NCBI GenBank assembly: GCA_030650425.1
Contig: JAUSED010000008.1
Span: 196,554 to 260,553, forward strand
DNA length: 64,000 nucleotides
Reading direction: 5' to 3'
From: Candidatus Omnitrophota bacterium
GTDB lineage: Bacteria; Omnitrophota; Gorgyraeia; Gygaellales; Profunditerraquicolaceae
Position 1 is the first letter of the stretch. Each line of letters begins with the position of its first letter. Position numbers and translations under genes: made by a program. The notes below the pieces were generated by a model that made no database searches, was not told the DNA's origin, and saw nothing but the letters and a program-made list of their open reading frames with translations. Below, in pieces: positions 752 through 20,947 of this stretch.

Positions 752-1753
752 ATGGCTGAATTAAGAAGAGACCCTATCGTAGGCAGGTGGGTAATCGTGG
801 ATACGGATCACCCGAGCGCTCCCAAAGATTTTCAATATGAACAGTATATTCAAAAAGGAGGGGCTTGTCCATTTTGTTACGGCAGTGAAACGTTGACCCC
901 TCCGGAGATAGATAGTTTTCGCGAGCCGGGGACCGCGGCTAATACTTCCGGTTGGCAGGTGCGCGTGGTCCCTAATAAATTTCCGGCGCTCCAAGTCGAA
1001 GGCGAATTGAACAGAAGGCCGCTTGGCCTTTATGATATGTCTAACGGCGTTGGCGCCCATGAGGTTCTTATCGAGACACCGTATCACGCCAAGGATATCT
1101 GCGATTTATTGCCGCTTGAAATTGAGAATTATTTGAAGATGTGTTGCCGCCGCGCGCAAGATCTGGCGAAAGACAAGCGTTTCAAATATCTTATGTTTTT
1201 CCGGAATTTTGGTTCGGCCGCGGGCGCGTCATTGGAACATCCGCATACTCAGATTGTCGCGCTTCCGATGGTTCCTAAGAACGCGTTGGAAGAAATACAT
1301 GGAGCCAAGAATTATTTTGATTACCGCGAGCGCTGCATCTTCTGCGACATCATTAGGCAGGAGACACAGGAGAAGGAAAGGATAATCTTAGAGAATAAAT
1401 ACTTTTTGTCATTTTGCCCTTTTGTTTCGCGTTTTCCGTTTGAGATTTGGATCATACCCAAAAAGCATAGCGGGCATTTTTGTCATATGCCGGCTGAAGA
1501 AATAACCGCCCTCTCCGAAGTCTTAAAAGAAACCATAGGTAAAATCAAGAAAGTATTCATTAATTTGTCTTATAACTATATCATTCATTCCGCGCCAATC
1601 AATGGTGATGGCGACGGTGAGTATTATCACTGGCATATCGAATTTATGCCCAAGCTTACCCAAGTGGCAGGTTTTGAATGGGGCACGGGTTTCTATATTG
1701 ACCCCACCTCTCCGGAATTAGCCGCGCAGTATTTAAAAGCAATAAAAGAATAA
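752..1753 (+). CDS. galT: Galactose-1-phosphate uridylyltransferase (class I GalT, HIT superfamily), apparently intact
   Basis: Zinc-site CPFCYGSE, intact catalytic LEHPHTQ, C-terminal HWHIEFMP and FEWGTGFY motifs; 333 aa. Starts 2 nt after the stop of the upstream paralog. Confidence 0.8.
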   Translation: MAELRRDPIVGRWVIVDTDHPSAPKDFQYEQYIQKGGACPFCYGSETLTPPEIDSFREPGTAANTSGWQVRVVPNKFPALQVEGELNRRPLGLYDMSNGVGAHEVLIETPYHAKDICDLLPLEIENYLKMCCRRAQDLAKDKRFKYLMFFRNFGSAAGASLEHPHTQIVALPMVPKNALEEIHGAKNYFDYRERCIFCDIIRQETQEKERIILENKYFLSFCPFVSRFPFEIWIIPKKHSGHFCHMPAEEITALSEVLKETIGKIKKVFINLSYNYIIHSAPINGDGDGEYYHWHIEFMPKLTQVAGFEWGTGFYIDPTSPELAAQYLKAIKE

Positions 1754-2842: not shown

Positions 2843-2874
2843 GGTATTTTGAGTTTTTATGATATAATAAATCC

Positions 2875-3501
2875 ATGACCGATCTGGATTTTGTCCAAAA
2901 ATGCGCCAACGGGGACAGCCAGTCATGGGATGAATTCTTAAAACGTTATTCCCGCCTGATATATAAATATATCCGCAGCGTATTAAGCTCAAAAAGCAGC
3001 CTTTCCTTTATTCAGGATCACGCGGATGACCTGTTTCAGGAACTCTTCACCTCTTTAATTCAAGACGATTATAGGAAATTAAGAAGTTTTAAAGGAAAAA
3101 ATAGCTGCAGCTTGGCTAGTTGGTTAAGGCAGGTTGCTGTAAACTTTACCTTGGATTATTTGCGTAAAAGCAGGCCGATGCTTTCGCTTGACGCGGAGAA
3201 CGAGGAAGGTTCAACCCTGAAAGACGTATTAACCGACGGTTCTTTCTCTATTCCTGAATTGCTCAATCAGGAAGAGATGCTTAAAAGTTTAGAGGAATGC
3301 GTTGGAGAATTAAATAATAAAAGTAAGCTGGTTATAGAATTGAATATCAATCAGGGTTTAAGGCTCGAATTCTTAAAAGACTTATTCAGGGTTTCGCGGC
3401 CTGCCATTGATATGCAAAAATCCAGAATTATGGATAAGCTAAGAGAGTGTTTTAGAAGTAAAGGATTTAAGTTAGATTTCCAGGGGGAATACGTCTATTA
3501 G
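2875..3501 (+). CDS. ECF-type (sigma-70 family group IV) RNA polymerase sigma factor
   Basis: About 200 aa with a region-2-like segment (DDLFQELFTSLIQ) and a C-terminal region-4 HTH (LNINQGLRLEFLKDLFRVSRPAIDMQKSRIMDKLRE). Confidence 0.7.
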   Translation: MTDLDFVQKCANGDSQSWDEFLKRYSRLIYKYIRSVLSSKSSLSFIQDHADDLFQELFTSLIQDDYRKLRSFKGKNSCSLASWLRQVAVNFTLDYLRKSRPMLSLDAENEEGSTLKDVLTDGSFSIPELLNQEEMLKSLEECVGELNNKSKLVIELNINQGLRLEFLKDLFRVSRPAIDMQKSRIMDKLRECFRSKGFKLDFQGEYVY

Positions 3502-3520
3502 ATTAGGAAGGGGTATTGAT

Positions 3521-4222
3521 ATGGATGATAAATTTGAGGGTTTGGTTAAGGTGGTTTACCAAAGGTGGCAGAAACATGCCATGCCCGAAGGTGATCATCT
3601 TAGTGAAGAGATTATGGCCTGTTTCGCTGATGGCCGTCTCTCCGCGGAAGAAAGCGAGCCGATAATGGCGCATTTAGCTGTTTGTGAAGCTTGCGCGGAA
3701 AACTTAGCCCTAAGTTTAAGCGCTGAATCAGCTGAATTAAAAGATCTGCCTGTGGAACTGCTTGATAAAGTGAGGGAAATATTAAGCTTAAAGGGAAAAT
3801 CCTTGAGCTTGGAAATATTTTTACGGTTAAAAGAAAATATATTGGAAATAATCAATGTTAGCGGAGATATCCTTTTGGGGCAGGAGTTGGTCCCGGCGTC
3901 GATATTACGCGGCCGTAATATTAAAGAGTTTAAGGATGAAGTCACCATACTCAAAGATTTTAAGGATATTAGGCTGGAAGTAAGGGTGGAGAATAAGCAG
4001 GAAAAATATTTTAATCTTACGCTCAAGGCAAAACAAAAAATAAGCTTGCGGCCGTTTAAAGATTTACGGATAACCCTGATTAAGGAAGGGGTAGAATTGG
4101 AATCCTATTTAAGCGATTTTGGATCAGTTATTTTCGAGCATGTTCTATTGGGTAAATACAGCCTGGAGGTTAGCGGCGTAAGTGGAAAACTTGCTTCGGT
4201 AGTTTTAGATATTAGGGCCTAA
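3521..4222 (+). CDS. Putative zinc-finger (ZAS-type) anti-sigma factor, soluble (no TM helix)
   Basis: Follows the ECF sigma gene 19 nt downstream. N-terminal HLAVCEACAENLA (H-x3-C-x2-C ZAS motif). No hydrophobic segment. The C-terminal 150 aa has no recognisable domain. Confidence 0.5.
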   Translation: MDDKFEGLVKVVYQRWQKHAMPEGDHLSEEIMACFADGRLSAEESEPIMAHLAVCEACAENLALSLSAESAELKDLPVELLDKVREILSLKGKSLSLEIFLRLKENILEIINVSGDILLGQELVPASILRGRNIKEFKDEVTILKDFKDIRLEVRVENKQEKYFNLTLKAKQKISLRPFKDLRITLIKEGVELESYLSDFGSVIFEHVLLGKYSLEVSGVSGKLASVVLDIRA

Positions 4223-4232
4223 TGCTAAATCA

Positions 4233-6431
4233 ATGCTGGAAGAAAAAACTTATGTTTTAGAGATTACCCGGCAGCCGGATTTACTGAAGATGAGTCTTTT
4301 CGAGCCAAAAGACGCTGCCTCGACTTTAAAGCAATATAGCCAGCACAGGGTTGATTTTAGAGAGATTGAAAAGCTGGCGCAAGAAATTACCATAAGTTTA
4401 AATAAATCTGCTTCTCAAGAACCCGCGTTGGTCAGGAACCTGCAAAAAACAGGGCAAGCGCTTTGGGATCACATCTTAAGCCGTCCGGTTAAGGAGAAAT
4501 TAAAGCTTGCGCAAGGCGCCAGGCTTATTTTGACAATTGACGAAGAGTTGATTAATATTCCCTGGGAGCTTCTTTACGACGGGGTTAATTTTTTGTGTCT
4601 GAAGTTTAGCCTGGGCAGGCTAGTCAGGACAAAAAGCCTTGGAGCCAGCGTGCAATACCGCGCCCATACACATAACTTCAAAATGTTGGTTTTGGCCAAT
4701 CCCACCAATGATTTGAAATACGCTTACCAAGAAGGAGTGAATATCAAAAACCAGTTTGACCGCAGGCATACCTCAATCCATGTTGATTTTAAATCTACCA
4801 GCATAGACAGGATATATGTAAAGAAAAATATCAGCGACTACGATATTATTCATTTTGCCGGTCACTGCGCCTATGACCAGCTTGACCAAAAAAATAGCGG
4901 GTGGGTCCTAAGCGACGGTAATTTTAGTATCCAGGATATCTTGAGCCTGGGGCAGGGAGCGGCTTTACCGGCATTGATTTTTTCGAACGCCTGCCATTCC
5001 GCCCAAAATAACTTAAGCGGATTTCTTGAAGCGGATTATCAGAAGAAGAATTATTCCCTGGCGCAGGCTTTTTTGTTCTCCGGGGTAAGGCATTATATCG
5101 GTTCTATCCGTAAAATAGAAGATTCCGCGAGTTTGGCCTTTGCCAAGGATTTCTATCATCATTTAATCTTTGGAAAATCCGTGGGTGAGGGCCTTCGTTT
5201 GAGCCGGGTTAAATTAGTTAAGGATTATGGAATTATCGCCTTGCATTGGACGAACTATCTGCTTTATGGCGATCCTAGCTTTGTCTTATTTAAGCCCAAA
5301 GATAAAATATCAAAACAAAAAAGCGGGATAAAGTTAAGGCCGAGAAAGGGATGGCTGGTTAGTTTTTTAGTTGCGGCAGCGCTTCTTGGTTTATTTTTAT
5401 ATCTGCGCGTATTTTTGCCTACGCTTAATCCGAGCGCCTATCATTTATTTTTAAGGTCCCAAAGATCGTTCGCTCAAGGTAATAATCAAGAGGTTATCCG
5501 CTTGAGCCGGGAGATTATCAAAAAAGACGCGAATTTTGTGGATAGCTACAAGTTACTCGCAGATGCTTATCGCAGGCTGGGAGATAAAGATAATGCCCTG
5601 AAATATTATTTTGACTATACGCTTCTGGCGGAGAAGAGGCGTGATTTTAAACGTTTGAGCGGCGCTTATAGTGAAATAGGCTGGTTTTATCAATCGGAAG
5701 GAGAATACCCTAAGTCATTGGAATTTTATCATAAGGCGCTTGGGCTGGCCCGCAAGCATAAAGATAAATTGAATGAAGCGATAGCCCTGCGCAGGCTGGC
5801 TGTCTGGCATATCGATAAAGAGGAATACGCTTTAGCGCTGGAGCTTTTGACCAAGAGCTCGGAGATTAACCGTGAGAGAAAATTTCTCTATGAGCACCGC
5901 TACAATCTGGCTTGCGATTATTTTGATATCGGCCTGCTTTTCAGTAACAAGGATGATTTTAGCACAGCAGAAGAGTTTTACCGGAAGAGCCTGATGATTT
6001 TTGAAAAGTTGAAAGTGAAGAATGAATTAAGCGATTATTATTTTAATTTGGGAGAATTGTATCTATTCGAAAAACAGTATCAGAAGGCGCTGGATTATTA
6101 CTCGCTTGGCCTTAAACTGGACCAGGCGCAGGGGAATAAGTTAAGCCTGGCTTCCGATTATAATATGCTTGGCGAACTGTATCTGGAGATGGAGAAGTTT
6201 CCGGAAGCCGAGCATGCCTTTGAACAGGCTGTCGGCCTGGCTAAAGAGATCCGCTCACAGCCGGAGCTGGCAGCGGCGTATCATAATTTAGGCTTGTTAT
6301 ACAAAAAACTGGGAAAGAAGAATAAAGCCAAAGAATATCTGCGCCTCGCGCAAGAAATCTACGGTTCCCTGGACCCCTTAGCTTATCAAGAGGTGAAGTC
6401 CGAGATTTTAGGGTTAAATAATCCGCCTTAG
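4233..6431 (+). CDS. CHAT-domain (caspase-like His/Cys protease) protein with one TM helix and a C-terminal TPR repeat domain
   Basis: HFAGHCAYD (His211) and FSNACHSAQ (Cys254) form a CHAT catalytic dyad. KLRPRKG followed by a 21-aa hydrophobic helix (aa 374-394) predicts an N-in topology. About 330 aa of TPR-like repeats follow (YYFDYTL, YHKALGLA, YYSLGLKL, AYHNLGLLY). Confidence 0.8.
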   Translation: MLEEKTYVLEITRQPDLLKMSLFEPKDAASTLKQYSQHRVDFREIEKLAQEITISLNKSASQEPALVRNLQKTGQALWDHILSRPVKEKLKLAQGARLILTIDEELINIPWELLYDGVNFLCLKFSLGRLVRTKSLGASVQYRAHTHNFKMLVLANPTNDLKYAYQEGVNIKNQFDRRHTSIHVDFKSTSIDRIYVKKNISDYDIIHFAGHCAYDQLDQKNSGWVLSDGNFSIQDILSLGQGAALPALIFSNACHSAQNNLSGFLEADYQKKNYSLAQAFLFSGVRHYIGSIRKIEDSASLAFAKDFYHHLIFGKSVGEGLRLSRVKLVKDYGIIALHWTNYLLYGDPSFVLFKPKDKISKQKSGIKLRPRKGWLVSFLVAAALLGLFLYLRVFLPTLNPSAYHLFLRSQRSFAQGNNQEVIRLSREIIKKDANFVDSYKLLADAYRRLGDKDNALKYYFDYTLLAEKRRDFKRLSGAYSEIGWFYQSEGEYPKSLEFYHKALGLARKHKDKLNEAIALRRLAVWHIDKEEYALALELLTKSSEINRERKFLYEHRYNLACDYFDIGLLFSNKDDFSTAEEFYRKSLMIFEKLKVKNELSDYYFNLGELYLFEKQYQKALDYYSLGLKLDQAQGNKLSLASDYNMLGELYLEMEKFPEAEHAFEQAVGLAKEIRSQPELAAAYHNLGLLYKKLGKKNKAKEYLRLAQEIYGSLDPLAYQEVKSEILGLNNPP

Positions 6432-6445
6432 CGGGCTCGAAAACA

Positions 6446-6540
6446 TGGGACCGCTTCCATTCCTCTAGGGGACACTTTCCAACAGCCAGTAAACGCGTGT
6501 AGGAAAGTGTCCCCTGAGCGAAAAGAATAGAAACGGTCCC
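6446..6540 (+). terminator. Nested long hairpin immediately after the CHAT-TPR gene (outer stem gggaccg/cggtccc, inner 13-bp stem ggggacactttcc/ggaaagtgtcccc). Probable transcript 3' structure or terminator.
   Basis: Inverted repeats at 6447-6453/6534-6540 and 6468-6480/6502-6514, followed by TTGATTTT. Confidence 0.4.
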
Positions 6541-6570: not shown

Positions 6571-6726
6571 CCTTGTAAGTGATCTTTTGATAATTTTGGT
6601 TGTACCTAGTGAAAAGGCAAACTAGCAGTAATGCTGGGGCGCAAAGCTTCCGGCCCCACCCAGAACTTGGGTGTGGGGTAGCGGGGTTGCCAAAAGGATG
6701 AAACCCTAAAAAGCAAAAGCCCTGGC

Positions 6727-6828
6727 ATTAAGAAGAAGGAGGCTAAGATGAGACGGACACATCGTAAGGTAATGCGCAGGGCAAAGAGGCACCATAGAAA
6801 ACAACCGAGTTTTATCCAAGCGATTAGG
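6727..6828 (+). CDS. 33-aa highly basic mini-protein (MRRTHRKVMRRAKRHHRKQPSFIQAIRLYLGMPA), unknown function
   Basis: A strong SD (AAGGAGG) lies 7 nt upstream of the ATG. A ~150-nt structured leader precedes it and a strong hairpin terminator follows at 6863-6915. The ORF is below the 60-aa cutoff of the ORF track. Confidence 0.3.
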
Positions 6829-6862
6829 CTCTATTTAGGTATGCCCGCTTAGGGGATGAGGA

Positions 6863-6918: not shown

Positions 6919-6956
6919 GACTAGGGCTTGAAGATTGTAAAAAATATGTTATACTT

Positions 6957-7077
6957 CAATTAGGCAAGGGGCAAACTACCAGCGGGCAGGCAATGCCCGG
7001 GAGAAAACAAACAAAAAATAAATTTCCCCTTGCCCGTTTTATTTTCCCCGCATAAAAATGCGGGGATTTTTTTTGTT
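6957..7077 (+). ncRNA. Candidate small RNA of ~120 nt, bounded by promoter P2 (TTGAAG-16-TATACT, 6929-6956) and an intrinsic terminator (ccccgcataaaaatgcgggg + T9, 7047-7077)
   Basis: No ORF with an RBS lies between the promoter and terminator. Internal 9-bp stem ggcaagggg (6962-6970)/ccccttgcc (7027-7035) and hairpin cgggcaggcaatgcccg. The leader motif is shared with the P1 transcript. Confidence 0.3.
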
Positions 7078-7121
7078 AGATTTTTACCACTCTTACGTCT
7101 ATTTAAGTAGGAGGTGGTAAA

Positions 7122-8666
7122 ATGAAAAAAGTTATAATGATCTTAGCGGGGTTTAGTTTACTGGCTGTGAAGTTGTGGGCGTTGGAACCTCAATGGCAGG
7201 AGATAAGCCGGGGCGCGGTTAATGTAAAAGCAGTTTTGATGAAACGGGGTAATTCTGAGGTTATCTACATGGGGACAGATAGAGGAATATTTAAGAGTGA
7301 AGATGGAGGAAGTGTCTGGAGAAGTATTTTTTCTTTAAGGGGAGATAGCCACGCTATAAATTATTTAACCTTTGCTTCGCAGGATAATAAAGTCATCTAT
7401 GCCGGGACAGGTAACGGGCTATTCTTTAGCGCTAATGAAGGCCAGAGATGGAATAGGCTCTTTAAAGGGAAGGATTCATTCGAAACTAATTGCACTGCTC
7501 TATCATACCTACCGCAAGTAATTTATCTCGGAACAAAATCCGGGTTATTTGTGAGTAAAGATAAAGGCCGTTCATGGCGTAAGCAATCGGGTAAGCTGGG
7601 TAATAGTCGTATATTAAATATTGCTTGCATTGAAAAAGAGCCAAATTTTCTTTATGTTGCTTGCGCGGACGGAGTCTTCAAGAGCGTCGATAGCGGCCTG
7701 AGCTGGGAGAGAATTTATCTAACACATCCAGTGGAAAATGGCGCGGAGTCAGAGGAAGAGAGCGAAGATCGCGATGAGGAGGCGCGTTATTCCGAAGTAA
7801 GATATATAGCCATAGACCCTAATCAGACGAGTAATCTATATCTGGCTACCAGCCGCGGAGTTTATCGAAGTAAAAATAGAGGAAGTGAGTGGGAGTTATT
7901 CTCTGAATACGGTTTACTTAGCCGCGATACCCACTTTTTATTATTTTCAGAAAAATCCGAACTTTACGCGGCGGCTAAGTCAGGGGTGTTTGTTTATAGG
8001 GGTGAGGCATGGAGGGAACTATCGTTTAATCTTAGCTGCCGTTACGTTAATTTTATGGGTTTAGATAAAGAAGGGAATTTATATGCCTGTACCGAAAAGG
8101 GGCTATTCAAATCCAATTTAAGGTATCGGGGTTTACCGGGGAGCGATATAATCAGCGATTATTTTAAAGGCGAACCTAAAATTGAAGAGGTGCAGAAAGA
8201 GGCGATTAAATACGCGGAGGTCGCGCCGGAAAAAATAGCCAACTGGAGGAAACAGGCGCGGAAGAAAGCCATACTTCCGCAGGTTAGTATCGGATTGGAT
8301 AGGAATTCAGGCGACCTCTGGCATTGGGAAGGCGGTTCGACTACCAAAAGCGATGATGATACTCTCAGGCGGGGCCGGGATACTCTGGATTGGGATGTCA
8401 GGTTGAGCTGGGATTTAAGCGAGCTGATTTGGAATAATGATCAGACTTCTATTGATACGCGCTCGCGGCTGATGGTTCAGCTTAGGGATGATTTATTGGA
8501 TGAAGTGAATAAAACATATTTTGAGCGGATCAGGGTTAAAATGGAGTTAGATAGCTTGCAGATTGAAGATAGGAAAAAGCGTTTTGAAAAAGAATTGCGG
8601 GTTAAAGAATTGACCGCTTCTCTGGATGCCCTCACCGGCGGCTATTTCTCAAGCCAAATTAGGTAA
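7122..8666 (+). CDS. Secreted BNR/Asp-box repeat beta-propeller protein (Ycf48/sialidase-like fold) with a charged C-terminal domain
   Basis: Signal peptide, then at least six repeats of the S-x-D-x-G-x-x-W type (KSEDGGSVWRS, SANEGQRWNRL, SKDKGRSWRKQ, SVDSGLSWERI, SKNRGSEWELF). The C-terminal ~170 aa is rich in D/R/K and W. Confidence 0.55.
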   Translation: MKKVIMILAGFSLLAVKLWALEPQWQEISRGAVNVKAVLMKRGNSEVIYMGTDRGIFKSEDGGSVWRSIFSLRGDSHAINYLTFASQDNKVIYAGTGNGLFFSANEGQRWNRLFKGKDSFETNCTALSYLPQVIYLGTKSGLFVSKDKGRSWRKQSGKLGNSRILNIACIEKEPNFLYVACADGVFKSVDSGLSWERIYLTHPVENGAESEEESEDRDEEARYSEVRYIAIDPNQTSNLYLATSRGVYRSKNRGSEWELFSEYGLLSRDTHFLLFSEKSELYAAAKSGVFVYRGEAWRELSFNLSCRYVNFMGLDKEGNLYACTEKGLFKSNLRYRGLPGSDIISDYFKGEPKIEEVQKEAIKYAEVAPEKIANWRKQARKKAILPQVSIGLDRNSGDLWHWEGGSTTKSDDDTLRRGRDTLDWDVRLSWDLSELIWNNDQTSIDTRSRLMVQLRDDLLDEVNKTYFERIRVKMELDSLQIEDRKKRFEKELRVKELTASLDALTGGYFSSQIR

Positions 8667-18151: not shown

Positions 18152-20947
18152 ATGAAAAAGTTTAGCGTCATTTTATTAATTTTGATTTTTTTTTCCTCCT
18201 TCGTTTTGCCTTCCCATAGTTACGCTCTTGTGCCGGAATACCTTTGTGAAACCGGGATTAAGTTTTACCAGCAAGGCAGGTATAGCGAAGCCCTGCAGGA
18301 ATTTAATAAAGCCCTGTTAATCGCGGCTAATTATGAGCCTGCCTTAAAATATATCCATAAGATTCAGGCATTAGAATTCCAAGAGCCGCCGGAAGAGAAA
18401 AGCATTGAAATAAATTTAGAGCCCTCCCGCAAAAACCCTATTCTAGAACGAGAAATCGCCATGGAAAGGGCGCTAAAAGTTATTAGCCGCAAAAATCCTA
18501 TCCTAGAACGGGAAGCCGTAATGGAAAGAGTACTCAGGTTAGAAGAAAAGAAAAGGCGAAAAGCCCTCTTGTCCCAGCCAAAAGTTCTTACCCTTGATGA
18601 ATTATTAGCTAAGCTAACCGGTGCTTTAGAAATTGAGCAGGGTAAGAGTTTAAGCCTGCATAGCTCAGGTATGCGGCGATTTTTGGTCACCCAGCCGGAT
18701 ATTATCAGGGTGGAAAGAAATACCTCTGAGCAAATATTAGTCACGGGTATTAATCTTGGCTATACCTATTTACATGTTTGGGATGCTAACGGACGCCATA
18801 CTTTGGAAATTCTTACGGTTCCTGCTAAGCCAGAAGGAGAATCATTAGAAGATATATCGCGCCGGGAAGAAGAAAAAGCGAGAAATTTTAAACTGACTTA
18901 TTCTATGGATTGGTCCACTTATGCTACCGGCGCAAGATGGGCTGCTTTAAAACGTTCGAATTATTATTACATCCATAATTTAGGGTTGGCCGGAGAGACG
19001 CCATACGGAAACCTTGATTCATCGCTGGCGGTAAACCGCTATAATAGCCTTACGGAGCTTACGCATTATACTTTGGGCTTAACTAACGGTAAATTTGGCG
19101 ATTTTAAGGATTTTACCCTGCGCGCTTTTGATTTTTTTGACATCCCTCCGGATTTTTCTAACCTCGCTTTCCCCGGGATACCCTTAAGGGGGGCTATGCT
19201 TGCTTCTCCGGCATTCAATAATAAGCTTAATTACACTGTGTTTTCCGGTAAAGAAAATTGGTCCGGATTTGCCGGTCTCTCTCCCGCGTTAAACCAGGAA
19301 AGGAAGGCCTATTTAGAAGGATTGAATATCGGCTTTACTCCCACGAAAAAGCAAAATTATAAATTTACCTTAATTCACGGCTGGGGCAAGGATCGAGGCC
19401 CGGCGCTTAAATCTTTAGGCTATGATTTAATGGGTGATTGGCTTTTAGATAAGTGGAAATTGGGGTACGAGTCGGCCAGCGATACAAAAAATTTTGCCAA
19501 TCTTTTAAAAATAGATTATCTCCGGCCAAATTTAAGTTTTAACGCGCAATTAAGGGATATTGATAAGGGTTTTGAGAGCATAACCGGGAGCGGATGGAGC
19601 CAGGGGCAGTTAGGCGGGCTGTTTAATTTTAATTACAGGCCTTGGGAAAAATTAGAAATATATAGCAGTTTGGATCTTTTTAAAGACAGGTTATATCCGG
19701 CTCCGGGAAACAATAATCGTTGGAATGAGGATTTTAACTGGAATAGCGTTTATAGGGTTGACCCCCTAACTTCATTATCTCTAAACTACACTTTGCAGAA
19801 TGAATTAGGCAGGATTTCACAATATCGTTATCAAAGCATAGACGCGGGCATCAACCGGACTTTTAAGTTTTTTAAAGATGTAAATTTATTCCTCAAATAT
19901 TATGATCAGCAGAATACAAATTTTTCTTCCCCTGTTTCTAGTTACAGTAACCAACGCGTCTATGCGGGAGCCAAAATTAATCTTACGCGCGATTTATACT
20001 ATTACGCGAACAAAGAGATTAATTGGTTAACTGAAAGATCTAGCGGTAACAAGACTCAGCCTCAAGCTTTTGAAACAGGGCTGGATTGGAGCGGGCAGAT
20101 TGGTAAATCGCCTTTGTTTGGGGCTTGTCGTTTCACCTACAGGGATGAACAAGATACGACGTCAAATTTAAGTTTTCTTTCGGGTGAGGATTATATCGAA
20201 GGTTATTCTGAATTATCTTATCGGCCGACTACAGATACTCAAGTTTACGGTTCTTGCCGGGTGCGCAATGTTTGGGCGGATAATCCTAATGTGAATAAGC
20301 GCCTGGAAGCAAGTTTTAACGCGGGTATACGTTTTCTTTGGGATACGGGTATAAATTGGCAGGCAGTTGGCGATATTGATGGATATGTGTTTAAGGACCT
20401 GAATTATGATGGGATAATGGAAAGGGATGAGCCTCCGGTAGAGGGAATAAAGGTGCGGTTGGGCAGGAATAGGACTGCCGTGACAGATATCTTTGGTTAT
20501 TATCAATTTAAAAATGTCCGGGGTAATAAAGTTTATGTTAATTTAGACACTGCTACGATACCAAATGGTTTCGTGCTGACTGTTCCGGCAACTCAAGGCG
20601 TCTCTATCAGTCAGTATCAGACCGCGCGGGTGGATTTCGGCATAATCTCCCGTTCTGAAATATTCGGCTATGTCTTTGAAGATTTAGACGGTGATAATCA
20701 GCTTGATAAGAAGGATAAAGGAATCCGCAATGTTGTTATTATATTAGAAGATGGCGCCAAAAGGACTACGGATAGCGGCGGTAAATATTCATTCTCGAGT
20801 GTTTCCTCTGGCGAGCATGAGATAACCTTAGATTTAAATACTCTGCCGGTTTATTATCTGCCCAAGACAGTTTTGACAAAAAAAATCACCCTTTTTGAGG
20901 GTGTAGCCTATAATTATAATATTCCTCTGAAAAGAACTAAAGAATAG
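18152..20947 (+). CDS. Large outer-membrane protein (931 aa): signal peptide, N-terminal TPR, pilus-formation pil_N/BON-like domain, central beta-barrel-like region, two C-terminal Cna-B/SdrD-like beta-sandwich domains. Candidate usher or secretin-like pilus export component.
   Basis: Starts 2 nt after subunit B. The pil_N-like segment is VTQPDIIRVERNTSEQILVTGINLGYTYLHVWDANGRHTLEILTV. The middle has alternating aromatic/polar stretches. The two C-terminal repeats are DIDGYVFKDLNYDG...YYQFKNV and IFGYVFEDLDGDNQLD...KYSFSSV. Confidence 0.45.
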   Translation: MKKFSVILLILIFFSSFVLPSHSYALVPEYLCETGIKFYQQGRYSEALQEFNKALLIAANYEPALKYIHKIQALEFQEPPEEKSIEINLEPSRKNPILEREIAMERALKVISRKNPILEREAVMERVLRLEEKKRRKALLSQPKVLTLDELLAKLTGALEIEQGKSLSLHSSGMRRFLVTQPDIIRVERNTSEQILVTGINLGYTYLHVWDANGRHTLEILTVPAKPEGESLEDISRREEEKARNFKLTYSMDWSTYATGARWAALKRSNYYYIHNLGLAGETPYGNLDSSLAVNRYNSLTELTHYTLGLTNGKFGDFKDFTLRAFDFFDIPPDFSNLAFPGIPLRGAMLASPAFNNKLNYTVFSGKENWSGFAGLSPALNQERKAYLEGLNIGFTPTKKQNYKFTLIHGWGKDRGPALKSLGYDLMGDWLLDKWKLGYESASDTKNFANLLKIDYLRPNLSFNAQLRDIDKGFESITGSGWSQGQLGGLFNFNYRPWEKLEIYSSLDLFKDRLYPAPGNNNRWNEDFNWNSVYRVDPLTSLSLNYTLQNELGRISQYRYQSIDAGINRTFKFFKDVNLFLKYYDQQNTNFSSPVSSYSNQRVYAGAKINLTRDLYYYANKEINWLTERSSGNKTQPQAFETGLDWSGQIGKSPLFGACRFTYRDEQDTTSNLSFLSGEDYIEGYSELSYRPTTDTQVYGSCRVRNVWADNPNVNKRLEASFNAGIRFLWDTGINWQAVGDIDGYVFKDLNYDGIMERDEPPVEGIKVRLGRNRTAVTDIFGYYQFKNVRGNKVYVNLDTATIPNGFVLTVPATQGVSISQYQTARVDFGIISRSEIFGYVFEDLDGDNQLDKKDKGIRNVVIILEDGAKRTTDSGGKYSFSSVSSGEHEITLDLNTLPVYYLPKTVLTKKITLFEGVAYNYNIPLKRTKE
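18425..18544 (+). repeat. Tandem 60-nt direct repeat inside the OMP gene, encoding SRKNPILEREIAMERALKVI / SRKNPILEREAVMERVLRLE
   Basis: cgcaaaaaccctattctagaacgagaaatcgccatggaaag versus cgcaaaaatcctatcctagaacgggaagccgtaatggaaag, 60 nt apart. Confidence 0.8.

Follow-up and report, generated by a model that had tools for sequence, protein, structure and literature searches.

Can a bacterium pass an envelope signal to an ECF sigma factor through a single membrane-spanning protease? The question is raised by three genes in a 64-kb stretch of an Omnitrophota genome, referred to here as the window. They encode an ECF (group IV) sigma factor, a soluble zinc-finger anti-sigma factor and a membrane protein that combines a CHAT domain with TPR repeats (Table 1). 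The original prediction was that the third protein senses the envelope and cleaves the second to release the first.

Gene trio and its conservation

The three genes are co-directional and tightly spaced, as originally described, with gaps of 19 nt (sigma/anti-sigma) and 10 nt (anti-sigma/CHAT). The claim that no CRISPR system is involved also holds: the 64-kb window has no CRISPR-like or tandem-repeat array, the locus has no cas genes, and PADLOC found no defence family except generic TPR. The neighbours of the trio are housekeeping genes without island-like features, and the trio is present in at least 111 Omnitrophota-type species genomes.

Across 80 Omnitrophota loci, the anti-sigma gene has the sigma gene directly upstream in 76/76 cases and the CHAT gene directly downstream in 68/69. 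The same gene order is present at 23-38% identity in five distant loci (L086 and L088-L091), one of them in a Nitrospirota-labelled MAG. The window sigma factor is 26-30% identical to those of L088-L091; the distant anti-sigma factors are 23-29% (3 of 4 loci) and the CHAT domains 35-42% identical, and the outer domain that follows the TM helix differs. One locus, L077, keeps the sigma factor, the anti-sigma factor with its linker Arg and a BNR gene, and has no CHAT gene adjacent within the locus. On these counts the trio is conserved together, which is what phylogenetic profiling had been proposed to check. The invariant catalytic dyad, the ZAS domain, the near-universal co-occurrence and the placement of the CHAT domain inside the cell make it well supported that the trio is a conserved and functionally linked unit with the topology described below. 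The original prediction had named the dyad, the fold, the co-occurrence and the topology as the points on which it could fail, and none of the four went against it.

Table 1. Positions of the features in the window
Feature	Position	Strand	Basis
Extended -10 TGATATAAT, housekeeping sigma-70-type promoter	2860..2868	+	Window sequence and orthologous upstream regions
ECF (group IV) sigma factor, 208 aa	2875..3501	+	TIGR02937 and Sigma70_r2 matches
ECF-type bipartite motif GTTAGATT-N13-CGTCTA, first copy	3471..3497	+	Exact match
Soluble two-domain anti-sigma factor, 233 aa	3521..4222	+	zf-HC2 match, AF2 model, hydropathy
H51-x3-C55-x2-C58 zinc-anti-sigma codons	3671..3694	+	Homologue alignment
Arg130 codon, inter-domain linker (P125-x4-R130-G131)	3908..3910	+	Alignment of 123 representatives
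CHAT–TM–TPR membrane protein, 732 aa	4233..6431	+	Pfam CHAT E=2.1e-30, TPR_12 E=3.8e-32
CHAT (clan CD, caspase-like) domain, residues 71-347	4443..5273	+	PF12770 match
Catalytic His211 codon	4863-4865	+	Alignment of 121 homologues
Catalytic Cys254 codon	4992-4994	+	Alignment of 121 homologues
Single TM helix, residues ~373-395, K/R-rich N-side flank	5349..5417	+	Hydropathy and flank charge, 121 homologues
~9 TPR repeats, residues 400-727, predicted extracytoplasmic	5430..6413	+	Pfam TPR families
Intrinsic terminator, 9-bp G+C-rich stem and T8 run	7045..7074	+	Sequence
ECF-type motif GTTAGATT-N13-CGTCTA, second copy	7075..7101	+	Exact match
Secreted BNR/Sortilin-type beta-propeller, 514 aa, N-terminal signal peptide	7122..8666	+	Sortilin-Vps10 match

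Predicted promoters and the BNR gene

The sigma protein matches TIGR02937 (sigma70-ECF, E=1.8e-20, residues 17-192) and Sigma70_r2 (E=2.2e-7). Its gene is apparently expressed from a housekeeping-type promoter as a leaderless mRNA, which is predicted because TGATATAAT ends 6 nt before the start codon. Of 75 orthologous upstream regions, 63 contain TATAAT, which carries the TG extension in 50 and always ends 6-9 nt ahead of the start codon.

Exact matches to GTTAGATT-N13-CGTCTA number two in the 64-kb window, against 0.00 expected. The first copy overlaps the end of the sigma coding sequence, and 23 nt separate it from the anti-sigma ATG; from the end of the second to the BNR ATG there are 20 nt, which include the Shine-Dalgarno sequence AGGAGGTG. 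The motif precedes the anti-sigma gene in 73/81 loci, nearly always 16-26 nt from the ATG, and these 73 copies lie inside the sigma ORF (39), over its stop codon (25) or in the intergenic region (9). In 34/39 loci it stands before the BNR gene, always with GTTAGA and CGTC 15 nt apart around a spacer of variable sequence, and three further loci have versions with one mismatch. Distant loci carry the variants GCAAGA/GCATGA-N15-CGT(C/A)TATTA. The motif is predicted to be the sigma-dependent promoter of both the anti-sigma–CHAT pair and the BNR gene; it would thus be internal to the trio, before the anti-sigma gene and not the sigma gene. In some loci the same motif stands before Y1-transposase-like (RAYT/IS200) or GIY-YIG genes.

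The BNR protein matches Sortilin-Vps10 (E=4.5e-12) and NF045728 (E=5.2e-28, under its cutoff). Its gene, a predicted direct target of the sigma factor, lies downstream of the triad, at a distance of at most 5.5 kb, in 28/42 loci and directly follows the anti-sigma gene in L077. A putative terminator closes the upstream transcription units just ahead of the second ECF-type promoter. The unit originally delimited as 2875-6431 does hold the three genes, but it runs past 6431 to include this promoter and the BNR gene (7075-8666). Predicted outputs vary, being BNR proteins in Omnitrophota and a CsgG-domain protein and a FadL-type porin elsewhere.

The anti-sigma factor and the CHAT membrane protein

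The anti-sigma protein matches zf-HC2 (E=1.5e-5). Its H-x3-C-x2-C motif is invariant in 121/121 close homologues and kept in 121/123 family representatives, whose identity to the window protein is 21-55%; of the CHCC set, the first Cys is poorly kept (68/123). Kyte-Doolittle maxima over 19 residues are low in the family (mean of per-sequence values 1.12, highest value 1.83), so no segment qualifies convincingly as a TM helix, and family length is constant. The AF2 model consists of an N-terminal ZAS-type helical domain (helices 29-68, pLDDT ~70), a conserved linker of low confidence (residues 69-137, <50) and a C-terminal Ig-like beta-sandwich (140-231, ~80) whose fold matches are generic Ig/FN3 only. 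Similarity to the ChrR and RsrA models is weak, N-terminal (ChrR E=1.5e-4) and far under the family cutoffs. The protein had been described as soluble, with an HxxxCxxC motif and no TM helix, and this description stands; the zf-HC2 match and the helical N-domain fit a sigma-binding fold for the 3521 ORF.

The linker residue R130 is Arg in 123/123 representatives and is also kept in Nitrospirota-type loci. It falls within the region of pLDDT <50, and in 109/123 the next position holds S, G or A. Among clan CD peptidases other than caspases, most (separase, gingipain R, metacaspases, clostripain) cleave on the C-terminal side of Arg or Lys. R130 is a candidate P1 residue for CHAT cleavage; the invariant Arg could instead have a structural role.

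More than 600 homologues of the CHAT–TM–TPR protein, of ~730 aa, are present in Omnitrophota. The CHAT match spans the whole 289-position PF12770 model. In 121/121 homologues H211 and C254 are present within unchanged HFAGH and FSNAC motifs, which confirms that the dyad is intact; the distant relatives examined have HYAGH in 5/5 and FSNAC in 4/5. The AF2 model of the domain is moderate (pLDDT 30-85, with low values at the active-site loops). Sequence comparison gave no significant match to a solved CHAT structure; 8rot, a 991-aa 'CHAT domain-containing protein' of DdvA-like length, scores E=1.9.

AF2 places a helix at residues 372-394. The 15 residues N-terminal to the TM helix contain 5.9 K/R on average and the 15 C-terminal to it 1.4, with the excess on the N side in 121/121 homologues, so the positive patch noted originally is real and general. 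This bias, the lack of a signal peptide in the protein and the placement of domains in relatives, which have a class III nucleotide cyclase before CHAT and a CsgG/LpoB-like domain, with or without TPR, after the single TM, all indicate a cytoplasmic CHAT domain. An architecture of cytoplasmic CHAT, single TM and extracytoplasmic sensor is therefore well supported by these predictions and agrees with the topology first proposed. The TPR region is modelled with pLDDT ~90, and its best Foldseek matches are TPRs of the LGN/Pins type. TPR was correctly named as the outer domain of the window protein, but in the wider family it is, from domain content, one of several interchangeable outer domains (TPR, CsgG/LpoB-like or both). 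Some relatives have TIR or cyclase domains fused to CHAT. The segment between CHAT and TM (residues 338-370) is K/R-rich, poorly conserved and modelled with low confidence.

Proposed mechanism and its alternatives

We give an even chance to the reading that the trio is one transmembrane signalling module in which the CHAT domain controls the ECF sigma factor by cutting the anti-sigma factor, a cleavage that we infer. The soluble inhibitor encoded beside it would keep the sigma factor bound. An envelope or periplasmic ligand on the TPR array would activate the cytoplasmic CHAT domain, which would cut the anti-sigma factor in its conserved, probably flexible linker, most likely after Arg130; the beta-sandwich may serve as a docking domain. 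The cut would split the sigma-binding ZAS domain from the beta-sandwich and so destabilise or release the inhibitor. Free sigma factor would then transcribe from GTTAGATT-N13-CGTCTA promoters. The one at the anti-sigma–CHAT pair would reset the system and keep the inhibitor matched in amount to the protease, and the second would yield the secreted BNR-propeller protein.

It is unlikely that the sigma factor controls the CHAT–TM–TPR protein as one of its outputs instead of being activated by it. The anti-sigma factor would then be the sensor, either redox-sensitive like RsrA or ChrR-like with the beta-sandwich as sensor domain, and CHAT would act on other substrates in the induced response. The CHAT gene lies behind a predicted sigma-dependent promoter and could thus be a regulon member, and both the weak similarity to ChrR and RsrA and the survival of L077 without an adjacent CHAT gene are consistent with this. 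Yet CHAT stays right after the anti-sigma gene at 23-38% identity across phyla while the other predicted outputs change, and regulators usually co-travel in such a fixed position whereas effectors do not. The poor conservation of the first CHCC Cys and a receptor-like build with swappable outer domains, which fits a sensor better than an effector, also argue against an output role. That CHAT has a target in the module other than the anti-sigma factor appears improbable. PCaspase is reported to cut the putative sigma factor PCc-sigma (bioRxiv 10.1101/2023.06.23.546230), and for DdvA self-cleavage in trans has been proposed (PMC11506125), so the target could be the sigma factor or the CHAT protein itself, whose freed cytoplasmic fragment might titrate the anti-sigma factor. 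The low-confidence, K/R-rich 338-370 segment would suit self-cleavage, but its sequence is poorly conserved, whereas the anti-sigma linker keeps its Arg throughout, and no similar feature was seen in the sigma factor.

A module without proteolysis, in which the membrane protein is a scaffold that binds and releases the anti-sigma factor or its complex with sigma (partner switch, sequestration), seems very unlikely. Some CHAT or caspase-like domains are scaffolds, and the beta-sandwich resembles a protein-binding module. The DdvA active site is incomplete at rest (PMC11506125), which would also fit; the invariant active-site motifs, kept largely even in distant relatives, are nevertheless hard to explain without catalysis. 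We also consider it quite improbable that the trio responds to an envelope trigger as a conflict or anti-phage system of the kind of DdvA/DdvS or Craspase, instead of serving envelope homeostasis. All characterised CHAT–sigma links are defence-associated, and the TIR or cyclase fusions and the motif copies before RAYT/IS200 or GIY-YIG genes point the same way. Against this stand the PADLOC result, the lack of cas genes and arrays, the wide distribution among housekeeping neighbours and the predicted targets, which are envelope proteins.

Among known systems, Craspase has the same proposed logic as the preferred reading, with a sigma factor of ECF type and its soluble inhibitor encoded beside a cytoplasmic CHAT protease that bears a TPR array: Cas7-11 with the TPR-CHAT protease Csx29 cuts Csx30, which frees the ECF-like CASP-sigma (PMC10028731). 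The Omnitrophota locus differs in having no Cas genes or crRNA trigger, a zf-HC2/ZAS inhibitor in place of Csx30, a signal predicted to come from outside the membrane, and CHAT followed by TPR with a TM helix between, where Craspase has a soluble TPR-CHAT. Its sigma factor scores 27 bits against the III-E sigma model (cutoff 100), and its CHAT domain is the one noted above as lacking a significant match to solved structures. Myxococcus xanthus DdvA is a ZAS anti-sigma domain fused through one TM to a periplasmic TPR-CHAT, with self-cleavage proposed to release the ECF sigma DdvS, and DdvA-like proteins are reported in Myxococcota and one Comamonas only (PMC11506125). The parts are the same (ECF sigma, CHCC/ZAS domain, one TM, TPR, CHAT with a His-Cys dyad), as is the proposed role of CHAT as trigger of sigma release. 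DdvA is one polypeptide with both CHAT and TPR in the periplasm, where CHAT would make a site-1 cut in DdvA's own linker ahead of RseP, whereas here a soluble protein of its own carries the ZAS domain and CHAT is cytoplasmic; with protease and putative substrate on the same side, no intramembrane step is required. DdvA/DdvS, published in 2024, and the PCaspase report make outdated the original statement that CHAT-dependent ECF activation was undescribed outside Craspase. Because of this, and because the CHAT cut is still inferred, the original interpretation as a whole is partly supported.

As summarised in the PCaspase preprint, the type III-B CalpL–CalpT–CalpS system is also co-encoded and uses a dedicated cytoplasmic SAVED-Lon protease to cut a soluble anti-sigma-like protein bound to a sigma factor and give a sigma subcomplex (bioRxiv 10.1101/2023.06.23.546230). 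CalpL is Lon-like and triggered by intracellular cyclic oligoadenylate, whereas the protease here is of clan CD and alone has a membrane anchor and an outer sensor domain. CalpL acting on CalpT and Csx29 acting on Csx30 are precedents for the release of an ECF-like sigma factor through cleavage of a soluble inhibitor. ChrR and RsrA share with the window protein solubility and an N-terminal H-x3-C-x2-C, and ChrR also a beta-rich C-terminal domain; this is a cupin beta-barrel sensor in ChrR and an Ig-like sandwich here, and the present family is further set apart by its conserved linker, in which the Arg never varies, and by the CHAT membrane protein encoded downstream. RseA/DegS/RseP and RsiW/PrsW/RasP likewise run from envelope signal through anti-sigma proteolysis to an active ECF sigma, but here it is the protease and not the anti-sigma factor that has a TM helix, and sensing and cutting would fall to one protein. 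The arrangement found here was absent from the literature searched, and the trio looks like an undescribed route for signals from envelope to transcription.

The gene trio and its conservation

The window carries three co-directional genes, separated by gaps of 19 and 10 nt, for an ECF sigma factor (ORF1), a putative soluble anti-sigma factor (ORF2) and a membrane protein with the order CHAT–TM–TPR (ORF3). Their coordinates and shared direction are exactly those of the original prediction. The neighboring genes are GalT, GAPDH, BNR, hydrolase and acyl-CoA ligase. GalT/HIT-like tandem paralogs (galactose-1-phosphate uridylyltransferase family) lie upstream of GAPDH, an arrangement also present in the related locus L001. 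A protein encoded on a 288-kb contig of a Candidatus Omnitrophota MAG has the same sequence as the window ORF2 product (100% identity), and every close homolog of ORF2 and ORF3 bears the label Omnitrophica/Omnitrophota.

Features of the window around the sigma, anti-sigma and CHAT genes. Empty cells indicate that no value was assigned.
Feature	Position	Strand	Size or score
GalT/HIT-like tandem paralogs	13-750 and 752-1753	+	
ECF sigma factor (ORF1)	2875-3501	+	208 aa
ECF-type motif before anti-sigma gene	3471-3497		
Putative anti-sigma factor (ORF2)	3521-4222	+	233 aa
CHAT–TM–TPR protein (ORF3)	4233-6431	+	732 aa
Long near-perfect hairpin	6450-6532		
c-di-GMP-I-class riboswitch (RF03167, GGC variant)	6607-6695	+	59.3 bits (gathering score 59), E=1.9e-12
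Shine-Dalgarno sequence and tiny basic ORF	6735-6853 (ORF 6749-6853)	+	about 34 aa
Sigma-70-like promoter, intervening stretch and terminator	6928-7074	+	about 100 nt between promoter and terminator
Intrinsic terminator	7045-7074 (7045-7066 + T8 run)		
ECF-type motif before BNR gene	7075-7101		
BNR gene (secreted BNR/Sortilin-type beta-propeller)	7122-8666		
C-terminal third of BNR protein	8160-8663		about 170 aa

An anti-sigma profile, run against one genome for each GTDB species, detected relatives in 111 genomes. Eighty loci were retrieved, all from Omnitrophota-type MAGs (a few with other labels), with anti-sigma identities down to 40%; all data on the trio derive from MAGs. Where the contig leaves room, the sigma gene lies directly upstream of the anti-sigma gene in 76/76 loci and the CHAT–TM–TPR gene directly downstream in 68/69, and the genes flanking the trio vary from locus to locus. 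The exception, L077, has the order sigma, anti-sigma, BNR gene, with no CHAT gene within its 15.6-kb locus; its anti-sigma is otherwise conserved, with P125 replaced. The co-occurrence of the three genes in other genomes, which the original proposal required, extends to the distant loci L086 and L088-L091. In each of the 68 loci, as in the distant relatives, ZAS and CHAT are encoded by different ORFs. The trio is a real, conserved module, and we consider it highly probable that its products form one signaling module.

Residues 17-192 of the 208 in ORF1 match TIGR02937 (ECF sigma) with 73 bits against a cutoff of 42.9 (E=1.8e-20), and Sigma70_r2 is matched above cutoff. The Sigma70_r4 match is weak in the window protein (E=0.2), and Sigma70_r4_2 is clear in the L086 ortholog. 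These profile matches place ORF1 among the predicted ECF (group IV) sigma-70 factors. Its cognate anti-sigma candidate is the adjacent zf-HC2 protein.

Predicted properties of the anti-sigma and CHAT proteins

ORF2 matches zf-HC2 (E=1.5e-5, 25.5 bits, cutoff 22.2). The HxxxCxxC motif claimed for it, H51-x3-C55-x2-C58, is invariant in 121/121 homologs of 57-84% identity and its three ligands are kept in 121 of 123 family representatives; the fourth ZAS ligand, C34, is present in only 68/123. In an AF2 model (45-sequence alignment, mean pLDDT 62.5) the ZAS helices 29-36, 42-54 and 56-68 (span 29-68) have a pLDDT of about 70, segment 69-137 is below 50, and an eight-strand beta-sandwich at 140-231 is at about 80. 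The profile match, the conservation and the model together put the motif within a helical bundle, as in a ZAS (class I) domain, and ORF2 is a putative sigma-binding, zinc-binding ZAS anti-sigma. Because a fold search with this model returned only generic Ig/FN3/GAE sandwiches at E >3e-3, the C-terminal sandwich is given no functional assignment. As originally predicted, no qualifying TM helix occurs in the family (mean 19-residue hydropathy maximum 1.12, family maximum 1.83).

The most conserved stretch among close homologs, residues 100-150, overlaps the C-terminal part of the low-confidence segment. Arg130 is the sole residue kept in 123/123 representatives (21-55% identity to the window protein), a conservation at least as high as that of the zinc ligands. 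The residue after it is S, G or A in 109/123, and P125 precedes it in 107/123. Most clan CD peptidases other than caspases cleave after Arg or Lys. Its strict conservation, and its place in a linker between domains that is probably flexible, make Arg130 a candidate P1 cleavage site for CHAT.

The CHAT match of ORF3 (PF12770; E=2.1e-30, 106.6 bits, cutoff 24) covers residues 71-347 and model positions 1-289 of 289. A secondary match is to Peptidase_C25, the L086 and L088 orthologs also match Peptidase_C50/separase, and many TPR models match residues 400-730. The predicted dyad, His211 and Cys254 (HFAGH and FSNAC contexts), is invariant in 121/121 homologs at 57-84% identity, and in the five distant relatives examined HYAGH is kept in 5/5 and FSNAC in 4/5. 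ORF3 is thus a CHAT (clan CD) protein with an apparently intact His-Cys dyad and a putative endopeptidase. The AF2 model of the CHAT region is only moderate, with low confidence around the active-site loops. Searches of solved CHAT structures with phmmer and with a CHAT-only profile gave nothing significant (8tl0, E=0.22; 8rot, E=1.9). Foldseek, run with the full-length ORF3 model, matched TPR proteins only.

A single hydrophobic segment at about residues 375-395 is present in nearly all 121 ORF3 homologs. The 15 residues before it contain on average 5.9 K/R, the 15 after it 1.4, and the N-terminal flank is the richer in 121/121; no N-terminal signal-peptide-like segment was found in these homologs. 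In some distant relatives a class III nucleotide cyclase, an enzyme that requires cytoplasmic NTP, is fused N-terminal to CHAT. Behind the single TM helix, distant relatives carry TPR and CsgG/LpoB-like domains, the latter not known to us outside periplasmic lipoproteins. Because of the missing signal peptide, the K/R bias and the placement of these domains, the predicted topology, with CHAT cytoplasmic and TPR extracytoplasmic, is well supported, in agreement with the original proposal.

An anti-sigma profile search of 1.84 billion cluster representatives gave 462 clusters at E≤1e-10, of which 120 reached E≤1e-30; among the top 150 clusters listed, full-length anti-sigmas measure 225-248 aa. 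A metagenome scan with a narrower anti-sigma alignment gave three short loci, one of them informative. The metagenomic locus L086 has the order sigma, anti-sigma, CHAT membrane protein; its CHAT is 42% identical to that of the window over 284 aa (E=4e-78), its post-TM region is CsgG/LpoB-like, not TPR, and its CHAT protein has 1282 homologs at E≤1e-10, from MAGs labeled Nitrospirota, Nitrospinota and Proteobacteria. Four architectures are suggested by domain sets and lengths, the domain order being verified for L086, L088, L090 and L091 only: CHAT–TM–CsgG (about 690 aa), cyclase–CHAT–TM–CsgG (about 900 aa), cyclase–CHAT–TM–TPR–CsgG (about 1100 aa), and one with a TIR-type domain (PF13676), CHAT and CsgG (about 829 aa). 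All four of L088-L091 encode a ~200-aa sigma, then a 214-243-aa protein, then a CHAT protein, with pairwise identities to the window proteins of 26-30% (sigma), 35-38% (CHAT) and 23-29% full-length (anti-sigma, 3/4 loci). The region 3' of CHAT (L088 6082-9425, L089 4099-7439, L090 7263-9221, L091 7432-9906) encodes a 650-820-aa CsgG-domain protein, with Glucodextran_B/Big-like domains in 3/4 loci, followed in L088 and L089 (2/4) by a FadL-type (Toluene_X) outer-membrane channel. These two proteins are likely envelope outputs or partners that replace BNR in the distant loci. Such a pattern, in which the cytoplasmic core is kept and the extracytoplasmic domain is exchanged, is the hallmark of transmembrane receptors.

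Predicted promoters and regulon, and the DNA before the BNR gene

An extended -10, TGnTATAAT, precedes the sigma gene in 63/75 loci. In the window (2860-2877) and in related loci the sigma gene starts with ATG or GTG and has no Shine-Dalgarno sequence, a trait conserved across Omnitrophota. Because TGnTATAAT ends 6-9 nt 5' of the start codon, the gene is apparently expressed from a housekeeping-type promoter as a leaderless mRNA.

A second, bipartite motif, GTTAGATT-N13-CGTCTA(TT), emerged from k-mer enrichment in the upstream regions of orthologs; its GTTAGA-to-CGTC spacing is exactly 15 nt in all cases, and the spacer sequence varies. It precedes the anti-sigma gene in 73/81 loci, ends 16-26 nt before the ATG in almost all, and is contained in the 3' end of the sigma coding sequence in 39, spans the stop codon in 25 and falls between the genes in 9. 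It precedes the BNR gene in 34/39 loci, with one mismatch in 3 more, about 47 nt before the gene start. Because it is intergenic or stop-spanning in some loci and recurs before the BNR gene, the motif was taken to be an element of the DNA itself, and the idea that it only reflects conserved codons at the sigma C terminus was rejected. An origin as a REP-like element for nearby Y1 transposase-like genes was also rejected: the motif is non-palindromic, its spacer is unconserved and its distance to start codons is fixed.

The only exact matches in the 64-kb window are the sites before the anti-sigma and BNR genes (0.00 expected). Four one-mismatch sites were found vs 2.03 expected; those at 18792 and 54846 were discarded as targets, being antisense within long ORFs and no more frequent than expected by chance. 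A CGTC -10 with a roughly 16-nt spacer is typical of ECF promoters. The -35 part lacks the common AAC, and the motif is absent upstream of the sigma gene, which has TGnTATAAT instead. Variants, GCAAGA/GCATGA-N15-CGT(C/A)TATTA, precede the anti-sigma gene in L086, L088 and L089. GTTAGATT-N13-CGTCTA is described as a putative ECF-type promoter of the anti-sigma and BNR genes. From the promoter types in front of each gene, the sigma factor is predicted to be constitutive, and the inhibitor, the CHAT receptor and the BNR protein to be sigma-dependent. An intrinsic terminator separates the transcription units.

Extra copies of the motif, in L037 (-1258), L039 (-866), L049 (-7228), L053 (-7263), L081 (-7242), L054 (+5006) and L017 (+8437), lie in front of genes for IS200/RAYT-like Y1 transposases (about 160-196 aa), five of these genes being divergent from the sigma gene; the two proteins tested match Y1_Tnp (Pfam) at E=5e-17 and 1.6e-18. 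The motif also precedes a GIY-YIG protein gene in one locus. These extra sites suggest that particular lineages have added genes to the regulon. In the BNR protein, the C-terminal third, which has no Pfam match and is coiled-coil-like and charged, could be a contact for the TPR domain.

The 690-bp gap between the CHAT–TPR and BNR genes contains a c-di-GMP riboswitch. It occurs at the same place in L005 (10982-11064), L010 (10982-11062) and L009 (3483-3633), and because these are the three closest related loci and the only ones with it among nine scanned, the riboswitch is, by its distribution, a lineage-specific insertion. On its 3' side a strong Shine-Dalgarno sequence, AAGGAGG, is followed by a very small ORF with a highly basic product (MRRTHRKVMRRAKRHHRKQPSFIQAIRLYLGMPA); this ORF may be the gene that the riboswitch controls. 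Farther along, a sigma-70-like promoter, TTGAAG-16-TATACT with a TG extension, precedes a stretch (GGCAAGGGGCAAACTACC...) that ends in a strong terminator. All Rfam matches of this region are below threshold; it might encode a small RNA, or else another GEMM-like leader in degenerate form. Directly after the CHAT–TPR stop codon is a hairpin, GGGACCG...AGGGGACACTTTCC-N-GGAAAGTGTCCCCT...CGGTCCC. Other loci show an enrichment of the k-mers GGGGAC and GTCCCC upstream of their sigma genes, so the hairpin could be a REP-like element or a terminator.

Proposed mechanism and relation to known systems

In the proposed mechanism the outer TPR array would sense an envelope or periplasmic ligand, ligand sensing would activate the cytoplasmic CHAT domain, CHAT would cleave the linker of the soluble anti-sigma, probably on the C-terminal side of R130, and the released sigma would transcribe from motif-bearing promoters. 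We give this whole chain an even chance of being correct. A broader reading, held more tentatively, is that one-protein transmembrane receptor proteases make up a class that is widespread and undescribed, with examples from Omnitrophota and from MAGs labeled Nitrospirota, Nitrospinota and Proteobacteria. In this class an interchangeable periplasmic sensor (TPR or CsgG/LpoB-like) would allosterically activate a cytoplasmic CHAT domain, which would cut a dedicated soluble ZAS anti-sigma after an invariant linker Arg and free an ECF sigma.

The CHAT protein might instead be an output of the sigma factor, with the anti-sigma as the sensor. The position of the ECF-type promoter before the anti-sigma–CHAT pair is consistent with this, as is L077, the locus without a CHAT gene, but CHAT adjacency is held across phyla while other outputs change, and we regard the reading as unlikely. 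That CHAT cuts the sigma or itself appears quite improbable. Service in defense or conflict is more doubtful still: TIR and cyclase fusions to CHAT and the motif before Y1_Tnp and GIY-YIG genes in some loci would fit it, but the synteny is of a housekeeping type, PADLOC found no defense match beyond generic TPR, and, as predicted, CRISPR arrays are absent from the 64-kb window and cas genes from the called-gene tables of seven related loci. A non-catalytic scaffold, at odds with the invariant His-Cys dyad, seems the least probable of these.

The proposed release of the sigma factor by CHAT has a working logic similar to that of Craspase, in which Csx29 cuts Csx30 and frees CASP-sigma (PMC10028731), and of CalpL/CalpT/CalpS, and the parts are those of DdvA/DdvS of Myxococcus xanthus (PMC11506125). 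The module belongs to none of the three. Craspase has Cas7-11 (gRAMP) and a CRISPR array, whereas the module has no Cas association; Csx29 is soluble with TPR N-terminal to CHAT, whereas here the order is reversed with a TM helix between; and its substrate is Csx30, whereas the module's candidate substrate is the zf-HC2 protein. The window sigma scores 27 bits against the III-E sigma model NF041236 (cutoff 100), and none of the solved CHAT proteins is significantly similar in sequence to the module's CHAT. DdvA carries ZAS, TM and TPR-CHAT on one polypeptide with CHAT in the periplasm, whereas the module's ZAS is on a separate soluble protein and its CHAT, from its N-terminal position, K/R flank and the cyclase in relatives, is placed on the cytoplasmic side. 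In regulated intramembrane proteolysis (RIP) the anti-sigma is a single-pass membrane protein; here the protease spans the membrane and the anti-sigma has no TM helix.

DdvA/DdvS is a case of CHAT-linked ECF activation outside Craspase, with the proteolytic step still a proposal (PMC11506125), and the original claim that no such case had been described is outdated. CHAT, caspase, TPR and Omnitrophica all go unmentioned in the main text of the ECF classification (PMC7826278). The literature searched, which included the main text of that classification, gave no description of the module, and it appears to be undescribed there. We read it as a variant of a known theme, protease-controlled sigma/anti-sigma switches, with a plausible one-protein transmembrane mechanism.

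Few mechanisms of ECF sigma activation, a central problem of bacterial signal transduction, are established: RIP, partner switching, redox-sensitive ZAS, C-terminal extensions and phosphorylation. To our knowledge, control of sigma factors by CHAT (caspase-family) proteins is so far confined to phage-defense islands, and Omnitrophota is a phylum with almost no experimental genetics. The catalytic Cys C254, the single invariant candidate P1 residue R130 and the promoter motif are defined handles that can be tested in E. coli with no need of an Omnitrophota culture, and the motif with its predicted targets gives Omnitrophota a first sigma factor with a predicted regulon and promoter consensus. 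The module is widespread: at least 111 species genomes of the Omnitrophota type have it, as do relatives labeled as several other phyla, and its predicted mechanism is unlike RIP and defense-associated CHAT systems. If the proposal is true, ECF activation would proceed without a membrane anti-sigma or site-1/site-2 proteolysis, a caspase-like protease would act in an ordinary, vertically conserved envelope-signaling pathway, and the CHAT–sigma circuits of the Craspase and DdvA defense systems would have in this module their housekeeping counterpart, or possibly a relative by evolution.
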